Shown here: in pieces, positions 25,544 to 59,200 of the stretch
Numbering within the stretch: the stretch's first letter is position 1
Layout of the letters: every line of letters starts with the position of its first letter
NCBI GenBank assembly: GCA_046563655.1
Contig: CM102285.1
Coordinates: 12,338,001-12,402,000 of the forward strand
From: Yuukianura sp. NJ FZ-2021
Taxonomy: Eukaryota
Reading direction: 5' to 3'
Length of the DNA: 64,000 bases
Notes under the pieces: model-generated
Databases searched by the model: none
What the model was told of the DNA's origin: nothing
The model's input: only the letters and a program-made list of their open reading frames with translations
Translations under genes and position numbers: made by a program

Positions 25544-25847
25544 AACTGTGGCGGTGACTTGTGGTCCACATTCGGGGAATTACAGGCGTCTATATGTTGA
25601 CCTTAGCAATAGATTGCACTGTCCTGACCTTGAGGAAGTCCCTATGACTAAAGTGGAAGCCGAGTTGCCTATCCCTAAGTTCCCTTCGCTTCCCCAGCGA
25701 ACACCCCCCCCCTACTTCCCCTCGTCAAAATTACCATCCCCCTCCCCACGACCAACCCCCCCCCCACTAGCTATAGGGTAGGGGGTCACCGAACTCGGTA
25801 ACTAAATCGGGATTTACACCAAGTCACTGCCACTAAGTTTTTTTTTT
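25544..25847 (+). ncRNA. RNase MRP-like RNA copy 1 (S-domain deleted, C-rich P19)
   Basis: P1 GTGGCGGTGACTTG (25548-61)/CAAGTCACTGCCAC (25820-33); P2 TCCAC/GTGGA; CR-I GGAAGTCCC; P19 CCGAGTT/AACTCGG; CR-V AACTAAATCGGGATTTAC; T10 terminator; upstream PSE-like element at 25469. Confidence 0.7.
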
Positions 25848-26221: not shown

Positions 26222-26562
26222 GAATGTGGAAGTGATTTGTATTCCACTTTCGGGGCATATGGGAAGTAGGGTAACCTGGTTAAGGTAACCCGCGAATAAG
26301 CACTTGACCCGGGGAAAGTCCCTAGGCATGGGGGTTAGAGATAACCTTTGGGTACTTAAGGGCTCCATTAAGCCGTGACGTTTAAGAATTGAGCTGGGAT
26401 GACCTTAAGTGGCCCATTTGCCATAGTTTCAGAACCATGTGGAAGCCTCACGATGCTCGACTGCCAAATGCCAGTGCTGACAACACCCAAAATCAAAATA
26501 AGTCTTGTTTGTGAGGTAACTAAATGGGGATTTACACCAAGTCACTTCCACTCAATTTTTTT
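26222..26562 (+). ncRNA. RNase MRP-like RNA copy 2
   Basis: P1 GTGGAAGTGATTTG/CAAGTCACTTCCAC; CR-I GGGGAAAGTCCC; P8-like GGTTA-GAGA-TAACC; CR-V AACTAAATGGGGATTTAC; T7 terminator; PSE-like element at 26149. Confidence 0.82.
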
Positions 26563-26949
26563 ACAACTATTTCCATGAAGAAAACGTAAATAAAAGCAAG
26601 AAAATTATTACCTGATGGGAAGCTAGTACAATAAAGTTTTTGCTAAAAGTTTTTTTTGGTAAAAATTTTGTTAATTTTTGCTAAAAGTTTGATCAAATCT
26701 TTACTAACTGCTTGCAGTGGAAGAAAGTAGAGACACCGAGACAGACATGACAAGTGAAAGGTTTCTCTTTTTTTTTTAAATCGGTTCACCGTAAATTTAA
26801 ATATAAATGGGTTTGACAAATAAACATGAAAAAAATGTTTTGATCACAAAAAGACTAAAAAGCTGGCGTGGTCATGCATGAGTGGAAAGCAAAAGTGAAA
26901 ATACGGTTTAGTATAAATTGGAACTTTTAGCATTTATCAGGGAAAGTTG

Positions 26950-27022
26950 GAATCTGGCGGAGATTTGTATTCCTCATTCGGGGTAAATGCATTTGGTAAG
27001 TTAGTAAATGACTTCCGGCAAA
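26950..27022 (+). pseudogene. 3'-truncated RNase MRP-like copy (degenerate promoter plus first ~70 nt)
   Basis: Degenerate PSE and TATAAAT at 26912, then a 5' segment similar to copy 5 (ATTCGGG...AGTAAATGACTT.CCGGCAAA) that stops before CR-I. Confidence 0.7.
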
Positions 27023-27209
27023 TTAAAATTAAAATTTGGCGAATTTGTAATTTTAACGAGAAGGAATACTGTATTTCGGACCAGTAAAAATTGCAAAACA
27101 TAGTTTTTAATTTAAAGGAAACTGGTTAAAACAGTGTATGGTCGTAATTAAAAAGTACAACCAAGTTCTAGCTTGGTGTTAATAAGGGAGTTGACACTTA
27201 AGGGTCCTT

Positions 27210-27715
27210 AAGTGTGGGGGTGACGGGTGGTCCACTTTCAGGGATTTACAAAGCTGCCTATTGCAAACCGCGTAGGCAGCGCAGTTCTGCCTGTTGTTGT
27301 CCTGAGGAAGTCCCCAGGCATAGAGGTGTAGCATACCCTGGGCCCTTAAAGGGTCCAGTCCACTTGACTTGGACTCCATAGGCTATGACAATTAGCAGCG
27401 GGTGTTAATTGAGCTGGGAAGTCTAAGTGGTGGAATTGCCTTAGTTGAGACTAATGTGGAAGCCGAGTTGCCCACGTCCATCATCGAGAAACGGCCGGAC
27501 CGGCCTAGGCTAGGAGGAACTAGGAAGATCCTAGGTGGAATGCTTAGGGCTAGTACAGTTCCTCTCCCTAAGTACCCTCCCCTTCGTCCAAACCACGCTG
27601 CCGAGCGTACCCCCTCCCCCCTCTGCGACAGCCGACCTGGCTATAGGGTAGGGGACACCGCACTCGGTAACTAAATGGGGATTTACACCAAGTCACTTCC
27701 ACTCAATTTTTTTTT
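27210..27715 (+). ncRNA. RNase MRP-like RNA copy 3 (longest, 205-nt P19 domain)
   Basis: P1 with G.U pairs; P3 TCAGG/CCTGA; CR-I GGAAGTCCCC; P19 CCGAGT/ACTCGG; CR-V; T9 terminator; PSE-like element at 27135. Confidence 0.78.
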
Positions 27716-28492: not shown

Positions 28493-28902
28493 ACAACTAT
28501 TTACATGGAAAAATGCGAGATCAGAAACCAGAAAATTACCAACCGATGGCAAACTTTTTTGCTAAAAGTTTTATTAATTTTTTGCTGAAAGTTTTATTCA
28601 ATTTTTGCTAAAAGTTTGATTAAATTTTTACTGTTTGTAGTAGAAGAAAGCAGAGAAACGGAAGCGGAAACGACAGGTCAAACGATTCTCCTTTTTCAGT
28701 TCGATTCATCGCAAATTAAAATATAATTAAGGGTTTGACAAATGAGCATGCAAACTATTAATTACACCTCTTTTGACAACAAAAGGACTAAAAAGCTTAG
28801 TTAAAATGCACATTTTCAACTAAATATTGTTTATGGTCATACGTGAAAAGTGCATGTCAAAATACCATTGCTTTAAATAGGAACTTTTAACAGGGGAAGT
28901 TC

Positions 28903-29315
28903 GAGTGTGGAGGTGATTTGTGTTCCACATTCGGGTAATTGCGTAGCGAGGGTTTAGTCAGTAAATGACTTGCCGGCAAAACTAACCCGAGGACAGTCCC
29001 CAGGCATGGGGGTTAGGGATAACCTTGGGGACACTAAGGACACTAGTTAAGCTGGGACACTTTACGTTGAGCTGGGTGACCCTTAAGTGGCCCACTTGCC
29101 ATTGCACAGGACGATGTGGAAGCCTTACGATGCATGGTGACGGGTGCTCACTGAAGGGGCAGGGTGCACTTGTGGGGATTGCCGTGCCTCACATCTGTGA
29201 AGTGCGGAAGTCGGCGTACGACGACTTCCATCACGAGGCCTTTGTGCAAGGGAGGTCTCTATTCGTGAGGCAACTCAATGGGGACTTACATCAAGTCACT
29301 TCCACTAATATTTTT
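28903..29315 (+). ncRNA. RNase MRP-like RNA copy 5
   Basis: CR-I variant GGACAGTCCCC pairs with CR-V variant TGGGGACTTAC; structured 148-nt P19; T5 terminator; PSE-like element at 28830. Confidence 0.8.
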
Positions 29316-29387: not shown

Positions 29388-29587
29388 TATAGTTGGGGCA
29401 ACCAAAATAGACCCAAGTTTTTCTAGAGGATACTCGCACTCACGCCCTTCTCCAACTGGCACCCGCTTCTCCACTCAACTCCAAAATGAACCTCCCATCT
29501 AAGAAGAGACTGCCAGAAGCTTTACAGAGGTGTGAGTGCGAGTATCCTCTAGAAAAACTTGGGTCTATTTTGGTTGCCCCAACTATA
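29388..29587. mobile_element. Tc1/mariner-like MITE with 56-bp perfect inverted arms (including TA ends)
   Basis: 29388-29443 is the exact reverse complement of 29532-29587. It begins and ends with TA (probable TSD) and has an 88-bp non-coding core. Confidence 0.8.
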
Positions 29588-29863: not shown

Positions 29864-30139
29864 GAGTGTGGAAGTGACTTGTGTTCCATGTTCGGGGCAG
29901 GCTCTGATACTGCGAACTTTCCAGTAGAGAAAGTTTGCTGGAAATTGACCCGAGGAAAGTCCCCAGGCATGGGATTAGAGATAATCTTGGGGGGTACTTA
30001 AGGGTTCCGCTAAGCTGTGATATGCAAATTGAGCTGGGGTGACCTTAAGTGGACCATTTGCCATAGTTAATACACATGTGGAAGCCTAAAGAAGGTAACT
30101 GAATGGGGATTTACACCAAGTCACTTCCACTCAATTTTT
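29864..30139 (+). ncRNA. RNase MRP-like RNA copy 6 (minimal P19)
   Basis: Perfect P1 GTGGAAGTGACTTG/CAAGTCACTTCCAC; CR-I GGAAAGTCCCC; P8-like GATTA-GAGA-TAATC; P19 CCT-AAAGA-AGG; T5 terminator; PSE-like element at 29791. Confidence 0.83.
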
Positions 30140-31998: not shown

Positions 31999-32273
31999 AA
32001 ATGGAAGTGACCTGTGTTCCACTTTCGGGTTGTTGTCTAACAGTCATGTGTTGACAGTTGGGTTAACCTGGGGAAAGTCCCCGGGCATCTAGGTAGAAAT
32101 ACCCTGGACACTCCGTGTTCAGCCCAATCACCCCAATGCTTTCTTATAGGCTGGGACAAATAATTGAGCCGGGAAGATGTGGGTGTAGGGTTAGCCATAG
32201 CACAGTTTAATGTGGAAGCCTTTAATTAGGTAACTCAATGGGGATTATACCAGGTCAATTCCATTAATTTTTT
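31999..32273 (+). ncRNA. RNase MRP-like RNA copy 9 (most divergent from the others, closest to canonical size)
   Basis: P1 ATGGAAGTGACCTG/CAGGTCAATTCCAT; CR-I GGGGAAAGTCCCCGG; P8-like GGTA-GAAA-TACC; CR-V AACTCAATGGGGATTAT; T6 terminator; PSE-like element at 31925. Confidence 0.82.
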
Positions 32274-34886: not shown

Positions 34887-37296
34887 ATGGCAGAGTCGTA
34901 CGATAACTTGATATTGTAAGACTTTTGTTTTTGGATGTTTTTGCGATTTCCAGTTTGCCACTGTTCGCTGTATTTAAACTCATGAATTTTTTGTTTTAGG
35001 GTGGAAACTGCTGATAAACTGTTTATACATCCTGGGAATCAGACGAGTAGTTCAAGGTTTCTGGTGATTAATCGTGTAACAGATGAAATTAGTTTAGGAA
35101 GTAAGACTTCATTCACGTTCGATTGTTGAATTGGGTAGGATCGATGATAATGTTTTCTTCTGCTTCTTTTCAGCGGACATCAATACGATTCCCGATTCCG
35201 GGCGGATACGAACGGAGTATATAGCTGGTGTAATTGGTGTAATACGGCTAATTGCTGGTCCGTATTTAGTTCTTGTCAAGACAGCTACGCGTGTTGGTGA
35301 ATTCAATAGTCATGTTATTTGGCAAATGAAACAGCATGAAGTTATTCCATTCAAGAGATCAGATCTGCACATGACAGTTCAGCAGGTAGGACGATCCGAA
35401 CAATCCTTGTAGAAAAGTGGATCAATTCAATTAAAGGAAGAAGTAATTAAGTTTTGTTATTTTCTTTTAGCGCCAATTCAACCAATCGTACCTGGAAATG
35501 CTTGACTCTGTACTATCTACACCTTACTTCTATTACTCCCATACTTACGACCTCAGCCACAATTTACAGTCGCTGAATTTCAATTCTCCGGATTTCTTCC
35601 AGGTATGGGTTTACACTGAAGCGTGCAGTGAATTTCATAATCGCTATGTTTTATATTCGTAGCAATCTGTAGTTGCACGGGCAGACGAAAGATACGTTTG
35701 GAATACATCACTTATCCGAGAATTCCCGGCCAAATCCGAATTCCATAACTTTTGCATCGCGCTGATTCATGGATGTAAGTTTCAAGTGTTTTCACTTTTC
35801 AACTGCTGTATTCCTCACTTTTTGTGATTGTTTTGATATTTTTAGTTGTGTCTATAAGTGATGTGACTGTGAATTCTCGTCGGCTCAAGCTAATACTCAT
35901 CTCTCGTCGCAGTTCCCGACGTCCAGGCACTCGGTACTTCTCTCGGGGAATTGATTCCGACGGCAGTGTTTCAAATTTTGTAGAAACGGAGCAGATCGTG
36001 GACTGTAGCGGCGAAATGTCATCTTTTGTTCAAATTCGCGGCTCTATTCCACTGTACTGGACACAGAAGCCTAACCTACGTTACAAACCCAAACCCACCG
36101 TGGTGCCAGCCAATCATTCCGATGCATTTGCGAAGCATTTTGAAGACCTTGTTCTACGTTATAACCGGATCGTGTGTATTGACCTTGTGAACCAAACAGG
36201 ATCAGAAGCAGTACTCGAGACAGCATTTAGCCAACAAGTTCAGTCTGCCGGCCTACCCAATATTAGATACGAAGCGTTCGACTTCCACCACGAATGTGCG
36301 AATATGAAATGGCACCGTCTTGACATCCTCACCAATCGCCTAACAAATGAACTGGACGATTTTGGATATTTTCTGCAACTAAGAGGTCAGAGGCAGCAGT
36401 CGCAAGAAGGCATTTTCAGAACCAATTGTATTGACTGTCTCGACCGAACTAACGTCGTACAGGGCATGCTGGCGAAAATCAATTTAGAAAAAGTTCTTCA
36501 AGTAAGTGCAAAATTCGTTGATTTCACGCTTTTTCTTTATAAGTTATGGAAAATGGTGATAATGATAATTTTTCTTTGCCAATTTCTCCAGAGATTTGGA
36601 ATTCTTCGTGACCATGAGAAAATCTCGGATCACTCGCACTTTGAATATTTGTTCAAAAACGTTTGGGCTGACAACGGAGACATTGTGAGCATTGAGTATT
36701 CTGGAACGGGTGCACTGAAAAGTGATTTTACAAGAACCGGAAAGCGGAACTTCGCTGGAGTTATGCGGGACGGGTACAACTCTGGCGTCAGATACTTAAA
36801 AAATAATTTCAGTGATGGACATAGACAGGTTCGTGAAGCTTCGATCTCCATTTGCATTTCCATTCCAAATTATTGAATTATGTTAACAATGGTTTCTGTT
36901 TTTGTGGTAGGATGCTATCGATTTGTTTCTTGGCAACTACTCGGTTGATTCAGACGAAGGTAACGCTGTTGTCTGCCCACTGGATAAAAATCGTGATTGG
37001 AAATTCTATTCGGTATAAAATCAACTTGCCTTCGATTTAAATCGATCAGAACGCTAAAGTTGAAGCACTTATTGATTGTATTTCTTGAATTTCAGCTTCC
37101 ACTGCTCCTTTTGGTATCGCTGATAATGACGACCATGCTGGCAATTCTTCCAGCGGAGTACAGCACGGAGAATTTGATGTACCTTCTCTTTTGGGGATCG
37201 ATGTTTCTTGCGTCTGGTGCAGTAATTCTCGCTTTCGGAAGAGACTATGTGGATAACCCTGTGTTATGTCCAGGAAACGACCCGACGGACCATTGA
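34887..37296 (+). CDS. SACM1L: Phosphatidylinositide phosphatase SAC1
   Basis: LISRRS...GTRYFSRGID...NFVETEQ, SFVQIRGSIPLYW, catalytic RTNCIDCLDRTNVVQ, YSGTGALKSDFTRTGKR, and two C-terminal TM helices. Confidence 0.95.
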
Positions 37297-46969: not shown

Positions 46970-49029
46970 CTAGTGATCAAAACAGAAACAGTAATTTCTG
47001 AGAAACGCTTGAACACAAGAACTTTGACCTCCATAGGAATTGACTCGATTAATTTCACCAAAAAATGACCAATCAGTTCCGTTTTCAACAAGCAGCGTCG
47101 CTTCAAACACGCCATTTCCCGGTAACGTTTCAATCATAATCAAAAGTTTATGAATTTTGGAAATTATATCATCACTTTTTTGAAAAGAATCCATTTTGAG
47201 TAAAACGTCAGCACTCAGCACTTGACTCAATTGAAGCTTAGCACACTGTCGAGATGCAGATACAATTGAATTGATTTGGTCCAGAACGACCTTTGACCCG
47301 GCTTTGGCCAACTGATGATCCAGTGGAAGTGGCTGAAAAGCAGCTCCATCTTGATCACAAATGCACCAAGTAGAGTCTATTCCAGCGTCTTCGCAATGTC
47401 TATTCCACGGAATTCGGCTGAAATGACTTCTTCCTTTACCTCTGCTATTACCATCAGGATAGACTAAACGCTTTTCATGATCCAGAAGGTCACGCAAAGT
47501 TTCGTGAAGGTCAAATGGAGAACTGAGACGTTGACGATTAACTCTAAGATTTGTGACAGCTTTGGGATATTTTTCGATAAACCATTTTGGTAAAACGAAA
47601 AACAGAAATGGCATTTTCACTTCCAGTGCTCCTTGTTTCGTCTGTCGAAATTTTCCATAACGTTGTCCATGGTCACTCACGAAAATCAGCGCTGTCCGGG
47701 TCAAGTGACCTTGACCTTCGAACCACTTCAATGCTTCTAAAAGTACTTCGTCTGCAGAACTAGGGAAATCCAATCGCTCATGAAATCCAGCAGTAGCCCA
47801 AAGGAGTTGAAAATATGGCTGGCCTAACTTGGTCATTTGATTCGCGAATTTCATAGCATAGTCTAACAACATTTCAAGGCCAAGACGCGGTCCAAAGCAA
47901 AACGGGAAACCGTTGACACCGGAGTGGCCCATTTTCCGGTCCATGAGATCCATCAAGTCACGGACATAGTCAAGTGTCGGTTTTTTACCAAATCCTTTTT
48001 TGTCATATTCAAACATGCCTTGTCGAACGATATCCTCAAGAAAACTAGTGACATAGCCTTTTGCAGCATAGTCCGACCAGATGAAGTGACATTCGTCAAA
48101 AGTACTGCCAGTAGTGGGCCAACATATGTCTTTGAGCTGGTCCACACTCTGACCTGAAAGAATTGGCACAAGATTTGGAAAAGTTTCGGAAGCTACGTTA
48201 ACATAAGATTCCATTTCAATCGCTGACAGATTCGTTTTAAGGTAGTCGTATGTCAAAGGCATGTGACGAATCAAGTTCATGTGAGACACCGAATCCAGTC
48301 CAAGCAAGATTACATTCAAAATGTTGTTGTGCTGCTGACCTTTGACCTTGCTTTCGCCCTCAAAACGCAAGAGCAGCAACATGTCAACCAGATTTTGAGC
48401 TTCCGAGTCTTTTTCATCAGAACAAAATATTGAAATGAGTTTAACTTCTCCCGAAATTGGCGTGAAATTGGCAATTAGCGGAACACAATCATCTCTGAAA
48501 ACAAATGTTTGAAAAGACAAAGATTTCTACTGTGCCAGTAGGGTAAGTTCAAAACTTAAGTTAATTATTTTCTGCTTTAATTAAAATTTAATAATATGAA
48601 GTTAACTCACAGTATCATAGGAGGAAATGCTTTGTAGCAACAGTTGAACCATCCAACTTCTTCCGGTTCACGCAGAACAACTAAATTCGAATCCAAATCA
48701 GTTCCGAAAATTTTCTTCCACCGTTGTCCCTCACAGATGACTCGGTCACTTTGCAAAAAATCATTATCCACGCCCAAAAATGCATCCAAACGAGGCAAGC
48801 GACAGGTTAAGTCATTAACCTCTATATTGCTTAGAGTTTCTTCTGAAAAGTCCACAGTAACAGTTTCAATATTCCAAGAAATCAAAAAATAACACTTACC
48901 TGACCGATTTGAGTTAAAAACCACTGATTTTCGGGAATTTGGAAAAATTGTATATAGGGTGTATAATGTCAGTAGCGCGACCAACAGTACAAAAAATGAT
49001 AATCGCCTTCCGTCAGCTTTCAGTAGCAT
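46970..49029 (-). CDS. DUF229 / alkaline-phosphatase-superfamily membrane protein (3 exons)
   Basis: N-terminal TM anchor; LNVILLGLDSVS...HMPLTY, ETFPNL, FVSDHGQRYG, RLSSPFDLHETL, RHCEDAGI...WCIC, GNGVFEAT, RVNSYG...YCFC. Confidence 0.85.
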
Positions 49030-56289: not shown

Positions 56290-59200
56290 TTAAAGCTCGT
56301 ACACATCCCTCTGTTTGTAGTTCATCCGAAGTGGACTACATTTGATATTAAATCGAGTCTGTAGAGTTGAAGAAGCCACTTCATTACTTCCTCCTGTTGA
56401 TGAACTGTACATGTTATATCCCGGAATAATATGAACACGAACATCACTTCCAGCTCTCAATGGATCTCTTGGTCTCCGGGTCAGAGCCACCGAAGTTTTA
56501 CAGCAACAGTAATGAAATAACTGGACATAGCACCGTCGAAAGTCGCGATTCGCCAAGAGATTCACAACACTTGACAAGCAGGAGGGAAGAATAGCTGGCC
56601 AAATGATCAAGCGTTGCAAGTTGAGAAATGGATCGGCCGGAAGTGGGGTCACGGGAGACGTGGAGGCCGTTGTCATTAGGAAGTGGCGATGCTGGAAGTC
56701 CAGGGATCTCGTTTCTGATTGGTTAAGAATACTTAGAAGTGTTGCAACAAAGGACGGAAGCCATATAAGAAGTCGCACAAGCCAGTTCCATCCGTTTGTA
56801 GCCACAAGAGCAAATTCTCTGGACGTTAAAAATGGTTTCGGTTTTTTCCAGGCTCGCATGATACAAAGTGTTTTTAGAAATCCAAATCCACCGAGGATTA
56901 CAAAAGAAAGCGTACAAATTCCATAGACGGTGAGTGATTCAAATAGGAGTTGATCATTGAGACGATGATTTGTCATAGCTGGAGGTGATTTTGGTTTCTC
57001 ACAAATTGCCACCATGATTTGTGGCATAAATAAAAAATGGACTAGGACAATAATGCCTGCCAGAAGCCAAACAGTTAGATTGAGAACCGTAACTTGCCAA
57101 ACTGAACAAATCGGTTCTTTGCGAACAAACATCGTTTGGGGAGGTAAAAGTAGAAGTGATGGTGGATATGACTGATGATGGTTTTGGAAACTGGTAACAG
57201 TCTGTTGCTGAAATTGATTTGAGGAATGTGCTGTTCCAGTTTCGGATGCTGATGCTGGCATAGGGTAGTGTCCTACGTGAGAATGTTGTGAAGGAGTCTG
57301 GAACAGTTGGCGGTCTCGCTGTTGATCAGCGAGGCGTATGGATTTGAGGCGTAAAAAATTTTCAATTCCAATAATGGCTGTAAACATGGCGGCGGTGAGA
57401 CAAGACACAGAGCCAAAACCATACTGGAGTCGACAAATATTCTCTGAATCTTCCATTTCGCCGAGTACAGCTACTGAAGATGCTGGAAGAACTATGCCAG
57501 TGATAAGGAGGTCAGCTAGAGTGATGCTGGCTAGAAACGAGTTACCTGAAAATAAGGAAAGCCAAAGGTCAAAGGTCAAGCCGAGAAAATCATTCACCTG
57601 GAATACTATTTTGTTATACTTTCAGTCTTGCGTCTTTCGGCACTTCTTTTTAGGACGTCAAACGAGTAACAGAAAACATAGTTTTTAAAAAACGTCAGCA
57701 GGCAAACCTTGGCAGTGGAGAAAGTTTATCTAGCTTTGGTTGTTTTTTGAAAGCTTGAACATAGTAAAAGCCTATGTCGACAAATTTTGAAATATTCATT
57801 GCATATAAGTTGAAAGCCAGTCTCACAAAGTTCAAACATGTCAAAGGTCATTTCGTAAATAAATTTCAGATTTCGACCCACCATCCATTCATTATTCGAC
57901 AATACAGCTTTAGGCGGCTTTAGGCAAGGATTCAGAAATAAGCATTAAGGAGGTTGTCATTGATTAAGCAATTAAAAGATGAGTCGTGCTAAACCGCATC
58001 AATTTTTCATTCGGGTTCTCGGAACTTTCGAATAGAGGTGAAAGCTGTTGTTTGAAAATTCGCGTGATTTTGGTAATTTCCTGTTAAATGAGTAATAGGC
58101 TACCTGAAACAGGTTTCCAGTGATTCACGCAGTAAGAATACTTTGTGTTGTTTTCCAAAACCTCAGAAGGTACAATTATGACTAACCCTTGGATCCCAAA
58201 ATCGAAGCTATTGACTTTTCTATCCGATTCATGACAGCTTCATCTATTATTAACAAGCTTTCAAAAGCCAAAAAGTTACTGCCAAAGTTTGAACTTTTAG
58301 AGATAGAGTGCTGTGCGACAGGAAAAGGCATGACCTTTGACCTCTCTCGGGACTGTAGAGGTCACGCATGAAATTGAAAGGTCAATAATCAATATTCGAT
58401 TAATGGAAACAAGTAACCAATAAATATGTGTAAAACACGCTCCAAAATATTCAAAATTCTTTTCTGGTAAAGTTCAATGCCGGCTGAAAAAAAGCACAAA
58501 TCGGCTAAGATAAAATTTTGTAATTTTCTTTTTAATTTTTTGATTTGCCGCAGTGAAGGTAACTCCGAGATTTGTTTTAAAATCTTATGACAAAAAAAAA
58601 CTTTAAAAAGTTGATCCAATGCTAATTAATTTTTCAAAATCTCTTTTAAAAAAATGTTTTTTTTTTTAAAATGCGGACGTTTTTGTGAGGAAAATCACGG
58701 ACCAATGAGTTCCTTAACTGGAAAATCCGCACATTTTTTAAAAGTCAATTTTAAAATAATTTGCCTTTGTCTAACAAAACCTTTAGTAATGCCTCTGTGC
58801 ACTCCAGGAGCTCCAATATTTTAAAATTTCCTACTTTCCAAAAAAAGGAAAATCAAACCTTAAAAAAAAGGAGCTAGTGAAAACCGAAAGTTCCTTTAGT
58901 TGATCCACTTCTGGGAAATTTCCACTCCAAATCATTATTGCAGTCAAGTGAAAAGAGTCTTTCACCAAAAATCATTTCATTCTTCCAATTCATAATCCAG
59001 GAGTTGACTAGATCCTCGAAAGCCAAGGAAAAGTTCATGAACTTTGACATTCTCCGATTTGGCTTTCTTTTCATTAAGTTTCTGGAAGATATTTCTTTGA
59101 AATAAAAACCAGTTAAAATCTTCTCCTGAAATTGAACTGGAAGAAATGAGTTTTTCTGGTATAAAGCCATAGCGGGAAATATTGGGAATGGAATGAGGAC

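Follow-up and report, generated by a model that had tools for sequence, protein, structure and literature searches.

In the RNAs of RNase P and RNase MRP, helix P4 has a bulged uridine that is considered invariant and that contacts a catalytic metal. A P4 mutant in which this U is paired with an inserted A has been engineered. In bacterial RNase P, U52 is described as unstacked from P4 with its O4 binding metal M1, and the U52C substitution brings a loss of about 13-fold; the same account calls the U 'not irreplaceable' (PMC3488217), so that pairing it need not abolish activity. P4 mutations that shift the position of the bulged U69 are reported to reduce catalysis dramatically (PMC11221534). 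RNase MRP and RNase P have catalytic centres that are described as practically identical (PMC7351766; PMC13184271) and as embedded in protein (PMC7351766). In a survey of 26 insect species, the MRP RNA genes are presented as Pol III genes in their own right, equipped with PSE, TATA box and poly-T run (PMC4287351).

The window analysed here is a stretch of 64,000 nt from Yuukianura sp. NJ FZ-2021. A Python scan of the window revealed, between 25.5 and 32.3 kb on the + strand, nine RNase MRP-like RNA genes arranged head-to-tail and one 5' fragment:

25551 to 25831, + strand: copy 1, MRP-like but degenerate; CR-I is GAGGAAGTCCCT, CR-V is CGGGATTTA and the entire S-domain is lacking; a T10 run lies downstream
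26229 to 26549, + strand: copy 2, MRP-like gene with CR-I GGGGAAAGTCCCT and CR-V GGGGATTTA; 53.3 bits to RF00030
26868 to 27025, + strand: 5' fragment, the start of a copy-5-like gene with P1, P2 and P3 only and promoter-like elements of its own
27217 to 27700, + strand: copy 3, MRP-like gene with CR-I GAGGAAGTCCCC and CR-V GGGGATTTA; P19 region of 206 nt and two G.A mismatches in P1
28114 to 28479, + strand: copy 4, MRP-like gene close to copy 2, with CR-V GGGGATTTA; 38.5 bits to RF00030
28910 to 29303, + strand: copy 5, with P1, P2, P3 arm, CR-I, P8 with a GGGA cap, S-domain stem, P2', a 149-nt P19 arm, CR-V (GGGGACTTA) and P1'
29871 to 30128, + strand: copy 6, compact, of the derived subfamily, with CR-V GGGGATTTA; 52.2 bits to RF00030
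30462 to 30776, + strand: copy 7, with CR-I GAGGAAGGTCCCC and CR-V GGGGATTCA; 30.3 bits to RF00030
31084 to 31486, + strand: copy 8, with CR-V GGGGATTTA and a P19 arm of 146 nt; 26.2 bits to RF00030
32004 to 32262, + strand: copy 9, canonical-looking MRP RNA gene with CR-I GGGGAAAGTCCCCGGGCA (AGTCCCC at 32076-32082) and CR-V GGGGATTA (32240-32247), retaining the hairpin after P8

Membership in RNase MRP was judged against the Rfam model RF00030, which has a gathering score of 50 bits. Copy 9 scored best (82.5 bits, E 2.6e-21), its match at 32004-32260 covering the full model, and copies 2 and 6 also reached the gathering score. Copies 4, 3 (31.3 bits), 7 and 8 scored below it. Copy 5 matched positions 1-266 of the model over 28910-29301 at 28.4 bits (E 1.6e-6), a match detected only when its region was searched alone and missed in the whole-window search, and Rfam returned no RF00030 match for copy 1. 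The array resembles RNase MRP RNA (RF00030; human RMRP, yeast NME1) in its P1-P2-P3 order and in the P4 pseudoknot between CR-I and CR-V, and further in a P8 loop of GNRA/GARAR type, a long S-domain stem, a P19 hairpin and putative Pol III-type signals. When the nine copies were aligned with L079, a metagenomic MRP RNA (n=10 sequences), 93.1% of the cells of P1, P2, P3 and the P4 pseudoknot (CR-I GAAAGUCCCC with CR-V AAUGGGG...) were paired in the real register, against 27.7-53.4% in slid controls, and 7 of the 10 pairs of P1 showed changes on both sides. The array departs from RF00030 in four respects: an A in place of C after GGGG in all copies; a P4 3' strand that is longer by one base in copies 1-8, giving the U a partner; the lack of a hairpin after P8 in copies 2-8, with P19 arms of 63-206 nt except in copy 6 (12 nt); and the copy number, nine in tandem.

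All nine copies carry a block of the form tatggtc.t..gtgaaaagtac at about -78 to -57 and a block aaat(a/t)ggaac at about -38 to -29, and in all nine a terminator-like run of T5-T10 begins 6-10 nt past P1. For copy 5 these signals are:

28832 to 28884, + strand: promoter-like elements, recognized from sequence only; the PSE-like one, tatggtcatacgtgaaaagtgc, spans about -78 to -57, and the TATA-like one, tttaaatagg, about -38 to -29
29311 to 29315, + strand: T5 run resembling a Pol III terminator, 8 nt past P1

Since the same upstream blocks and T runs are found at every copy, the copies appear to be DNA-level tandem duplicates with Pol III-type signals of their own. An origin as retrocopies was considered and rejected, each copy carrying the same upstream blocks. 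The putative layout of PSE, TATA box and poly-T run, as well as mCR-I, mCR-V and the purine loop L8, agrees with the insect MRP genes as described in PMC4287351; the P8 loop differs, being GARAR in all 26 insects there and a four-base GAAA in copy 9 and L079. This GAAA cap lies at 32090-32101 in copy 9 and at about 686-697 of the - strand in L079; the P8 cap is GAGA in copies 2, 4, 6, 7 and 8 and GGGA in copy 5.

A preliminary description of this locus, made from the sequence alone, had proposed that P4 pairs away its catalytic uridine, and drew attention to an A directly after the G run of CR-V. The canonical pairing it relied on, AG-U-CCCC with GGGG-CU, agrees with the Rfam consensus, in which CR-V reads AAUGGGGCUUA, and the A was found in nine of nine copies. 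We also recovered the variation in CR-I that it reported, namely GACAG in copy 5, GAAG in copies 1 and 3 and GAAGG in copy 7. Beyond what it noticed, CCCT replaces CCCC in copies 1, 2 and 4, and CR-V of copy 1 reads CGGG, not GGGG. The window contains the string AATGGGGA 12 times where 1.78 occurrences would be expected, and 8 of these 12 fall within the array. Because the copies are homologous, their nine A's count as one inherited state and not as nine independent events. A literature search with the literal CR-V strings returned primers only, and the supplement tables of PMC13184271 held no MRP RNA sequences.

The base after GGGG was then compared in MRP RNAs from metagenomes. A scan with the CR-I pattern GRGGAAAGTCCCCRGRC matched at least 120 loci; from the matches listed, 19 loci with a downstream P8-like GCAGARA motif were taken and, together with L012, 20 were sent to Rfam. 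Among the matches listed, 17 of these 20 were RF00030 matches at or above the gathering score (62-147 bits), the exceptions being L008, L111 and L012. The sample is selected for a canonical CR-I and a P8-like motif, so that its frequencies are rough, and MRP RNAs with odd P8 loops are missed by it because that motif was required. In these 17 MRP RNAs, among the matches listed, the base after GGGG was C in 11 and A in 6. The six carriers of GGGGAUUA (L022, L056, L006, L093, L106 and L079) score 92-144 bits and fall, by similarity grouping, into two of eight lineages among the matches listed. One of these lineages comprises the first five sequences, and its P1 3' strand varies among the four full-length members; compensatory P1 changes are seen among the GGGGA carriers themselves. 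The other is L079 (100.9 bits). In the Rfam alignment of the metagenomic carriers, the A is placed under the C of the model at top posterior probability.

The form GGGG-A-UU-A keeps the canonical strand length, and it is the form present in copy 9, which thus matches the metagenomic MRP RNAs with GGGGAUUAC (L079; L022, L056, L006, L093, L106) both in the C-to-A change and in strand length. Copies 1-8 differ from these RNAs by an extra base that none of them has. L079 also shares the hairpin after P8, the GAAA loop and the 3' half of copy 9. An 18-row tree, from which copy 1 and L104, L085, L018, L014, L019, L106 and L024 were left out, grouped L079 and the window copies as a single clade (support 100/99). 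Of the two A lineages outside the window, only L079 was shown to be close to the arthropod family of the window. The tree and the alignments show the C-to-A change to be ancestral to the array, and GGGG-A-UU-A to be an inherited, recurrent and tolerated natural variant of what look like bona fide MRP RNAs. Since GGGGA is also found in copy 9 and in 6 of the 17 metagenomic MRP RNAs among the matches listed, it is not by itself a sign of inactivity, and on these comparisons the A after GGGG alone is no evidence of an inactive centre. The preliminary description had named a common occurrence of GGGGA in bona fide MRP RNAs as the observation that would speak against its proposal, and for GGGGA as such this is largely what the sample contained (6/17 sequences and 2/8 lineages, among the matches listed). 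Annotation of MRP genes should accordingly not treat GGGGA, which is widespread, as a defect.

Some loci met in the course of these searches lie outside the MRP family. Among 38 prokaryote-contig loci and 1 viral-contig locus with the CR-I and P8 pattern, a regex for a downstream CR-V-like GGGG recovered no MRP-like loci. Seven Fibrobacter contigs (L134, L138, L140, L150, L152, L155 and L157) share an identical GGAAAGTCCCCGGAC...AGAAAA stretch, which may be RNase P RNA with a CCCC/GGGG P4. On L063, a box C/D snoRNA (Z159/U59, 46.8 bits) occupies positions 121-216, about 400 nt upstream of the MRP RNA gene of that contig.

The second change in P4 is confined to copies 1-8. From the G run to the conserved A, all eight of these copies read GGGG-A-Y-U-Y-A, with five bases, as against the four bases of GGGG-N-U-Y-A in copy 9 and in 17 of 17 metagenomic MRP RNAs; among the matches listed, the five-base form occurs in none of the 17. 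Infernal marked a base insertion at the P4 3' strand in copies 2 and 6, and it aligned copy 5 as GGGG-a-CUUA, that is, the canonical CUUA plus an inserted a. The base replaced by the C-to-A change is ordinarily the pairing partner of the G on the 5' side of the bulged U. The extra base puts the A exactly opposite the U, with G.U (G-C in copy 5), A-U and A-U remaining in the canonical register, and P4 of copies 1-8 can be written as an uninterrupted helix of 7-8 bp. In copy 5 the strands are:

28995 to 29001, + strand: 5' strand of P4, AGUCCCC, with the U that is normally bulged at 28997
29280 to 29288, + strand: 3' strand of P4, GGGGACUUA; A29284 lies opposite U28997 and C29285 pairs with G28996

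The sequence does allow the uninterrupted P4 that had been proposed for copy 5, AGUCCCCA/UGGGGACU being perfect complements (AGTCCCC at 28995-29001 with its complement at 29280-29286), and flanking A/T extends this match to 8 bp without a break (AGTCCCCA/TGGGGACT). The U of copy 9 that is equivalent to U28997 is base 32078.

Over the nine copies and L079, 97.1% of cells were paired in a continuous P4, compared to 82.9% in the register with a bulged U. In that bulged register the G-A position was paired in none of the nine copies, the canonical G-C partner being A, so that the copies, as judged from sequence and secondary structure, do not show a single bulged U with its 5' G-C and A-U pairs. 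Changes on both sides of a P4 pair were seen in neither register, and covariation does not discriminate between them; the sole informative change in P4, U to C in copy 5, is one-sided. Nearest-neighbour energies favour the continuous helix over the bulge with its G.A by about 5.3 kcal/mol: -14.1 against -8.8 kcal/mol in copy 5, -13.1 against -7.8 kcal/mol in copies 6 and 8, and -12.2 against -6.8 kcal/mol in copy 9 and L079. The Rfam consensus P4 favours the bulge (-10.4 kcal/mol, against -7.8 kcal/mol for the continuous form). A third drawing, which pairs U with A and bulges out the G, falls between the two (-8.4 to -9.8 kcal/mol).

Calculated energies alone would thus allow the U-A pair even in RNAs of the copy 9 type. 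In copy 9, though, the pair needs a register slip of the distal pairs, and copies 1-8 need none. The proposed pairing of the uridine would therefore be available to copies 1-8, in which the U has an in-register Watson-Crick partner, and to copy 9 only by way of that slip. The wider proposal, an altered or inactive centre throughout the family, fares in a similar way: it loses its footing as a statement about all copies, GGGGA being found in copy 9 and in 6 of 17 metagenomic MRP RNAs among the matches listed, and in a narrower form, that of an altered centre, it is plausible for copies 1-8, because the extra base puts the A opposite the U and because the same copies show other changes in core and domains. 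Were GGGGA nevertheless disabling in the whole family, copy 9 included, a canonical GGGGCU (GGGGCUUA) MRP gene would be expected elsewhere in the genome. The preference for the U-A pair in the energies of copy 9 and the absence of a positive score for A at this site in the Rfam match line would agree with such a gene arrangement; however, six independent MRP RNAs of high score carry GGGGAUUA, P1 varies among the four full-length sequences of one GGGGA lineage, and copy 9 is otherwise canonical, all of which leaves this explanation very improbable.

In the same tree copies 2-8 formed one clade (95/96 support) on a long stem branch. Their alignments to the model delete its second hairpin after P8, leaving only the GNRA-capped one, and copy 9 and L079 have both. 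We take the lost hairpin to be P9 of human RMRP. Human P9 is described as stacking on P8 (PMC13184271). The P19 arms, which are mostly long in copies 2-8, measure 12-13 nt in copies 6 and 9, and the longer ones fold stably (z -1.5 to -4.9). That of copy 5 is an example:

29123 to 29271, + strand: P19 expansion of copy 5, an arm of several hairpins with its homologue in the arm of copy 8; MFE -64.8 kcal/mol (z -3.37), equalled by 1 of 200 shuffles

The P3 arms are dissimilar in sequence and also fold stably, with z of -1.5 to -5.3 and 0 of 200 shuffles as good in four of eight. In their P19 regions, copies 1 and 3 have in common an insert that is rich in C and resembles proline codons (25640-25800 and 27465-27660).

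Conservation within the array is concentrated in the core, which runs from CR-I through the P2 3' strand; its identity is 95.5% between copies 2 and 4, 93.0% between copies 5 and 8 and 87.0% between copies 6 and 8. The flanks of copies 5 and 8 share 58-61 matches per 100 bases and their promoter regions 74; under the same aligner, unrelated 100-mers of the window averaged 49 matches and reached at most 67. CR-I, CR-V and their flanking unpaired bases are nearly invariant in copies 2-8, and P1 has changed on both sides in copies 1, 8 and 9. The core does vary in places: CR-I shows C, G or deletion variants in copies 5, 7, 1 and 3, and the AG of CR-IV, inspected by eye, is altered in copy 6. Degenerate-looking members are copy 1 (no S-domain, CGGG), copy 3 (two G.A mismatches in P1 and a P8 loop that is not GNRA) and the 5' fragment. 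Copy 1 passes from CR-I directly to the P2 3' strand. The position of the 5' fragment between copies 2 and 3 (26868-27025), taken with the similarity between the flanks of copies 2 and 4, suggests that a unit of copy-2-type and copy-5-type genes was duplicated as a segment.

These degenerate members, together with the five copies that fall below the Rfam gathering score and the failure of Rfam to detect copy 1, are what one would expect if copies 1-8 were neutrally drifting pseudogenes, the change in P4 being one lesion of many and copy 9 the only gene that matters. Neutral drift does not, however, readily account for cores that remain 87-95% identical between flanks at or near background, for promoter elements and terminators kept in all copies, for compensatory changes in P1 or for lineage-specific arms that fold stably. 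Gene conversion between tandem copies could have produced part of this pattern instead of selection, and to that extent the conservation counts less against drift; we nonetheless regard pseudogenes as an improbable explanation. The conserved core beside near-background flanks, the retained signals, the two-sided changes in P1 and the stable arms together argue for maintained paralogues over neutral decay.

The reading that we favour, to which we give a probability of roughly 45%, is that copies 2-8 derive from MRP RNA as maintained paralogues whose P4 has been remodelled, and that copy 9 is the standard MRP gene. The C-to-A change preceded the array, with strand lengths still canonical; the P4 3' strand of copies 1-8 is longer by one base, which brings the A to face the U and would make the helix continuous. 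Pol III would transcribe copies 2-8, whose RNAs would fold to give MRP-like RNPs with the metal-binding U paired and stacked in their ground state. The A-G-U metal-binding geometry would thereby be changed and catalysis weakened or altered in these copies, with copy 9 providing the standard RNase MRP, and copy 1 and the 5' fragment would have decayed. As judged from sequence, an altered catalytic centre is plausible for copies 1-8. The same metal-binding bulged uridine is perturbed in the engineered P4 mutants of bacterial RNase P (U69/U52, moved bulge), as far as those are described in PMC3488217 and PMC11221534. Those mutants are laboratory-made RNase P, whereas the array consists of natural, conserved MRP paralogues.

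Opening an A-U pair costs little, so that extrusion of the U by the RNP could still occur. All copies, including copies 1-8, might accordingly be catalytically competent, with the U flipped to the metal in the RNP, the A stacked or unpaired, the extra base harmless and only the peripheral arms different. Near-invariant CR-I and CR-V in copies 2-8 fit a working catalytic core as well as they fit protein binding; that these motifs and the conserved unpaired bases persist across old duplicates, that the U-to-C change in copy 5 restores a canonical G-C beside the U, and that MRP and P are described as having practically identical centres embedded in protein (PMC7351766) all suit competent copies. 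Against them stand the advantage of about 5.3 kcal/mol of the continuous helix over the bulged register, the missing hairpin after P8, the further core changes in some copies (CR-I C, G or deletion) and the large loss of activity reported for bacterial P4 mutants with a moved bulge (PMC11221534). A U that is still extruded by the RNP is the main rival to our reading, and we hold it to be somewhat unlikely; pseudogenes and a family-wide inactive centre are both less likely than this.

Maintained paralogues with a remodelled P4 could go further and represent a class, not described before, of Pol III RNAs derived from MRP whose catalytic U lies in a continuous helix (U-A beside G.U or G-C), either as bulge-free natural RNase P/MRP-type RNAs or as silent RNPs; from the sequences we consider such a class doubtful. 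No description of a tandem MRP-derived family of this kind (eight genes that provide the U with a partner, lack the hairpin after P8 and have large P19 arms) was found among the papers listed in the literature searches, a search that fell short of key comparative MRP papers. If the class is real, its members would on the first option be the first natural RNase P/MRP-type RNAs to work without a bulge, for instance with the metal at the U-A/G.U step; on the second they would be silent RNPs that share the P/MRP proteins and regulate or compete with the enzyme of copy 9. A maintained family with a Watson-Crick partner for the U would be a ready-made test of whether the bulge is essential, and the array would exemplify a catalytic RNA gene duplicating and diverging within an animal genome.

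Other elements of the window lie between or beside these genes. Between copies 5 and 6 there is an inverted repeat of 59 nt (29388-29446 and 29529-29587), 98% complementary and with a spacer of 82 nt, which looks like a MITE-type insertion or a hairpin element. The array is flanked by an exon with SacI homology (Syja_N) at 35824-36876 on the + strand. Farther along, on the - strand, a DUF229 ORF at 46970-48520, by which the genome was placed among the arthropods, has its best named matches in springtail, beetles, bugs and crayfish at 33-39% identity, and a weak match to a rhodopsin-type receptor lies at 56290-57597.
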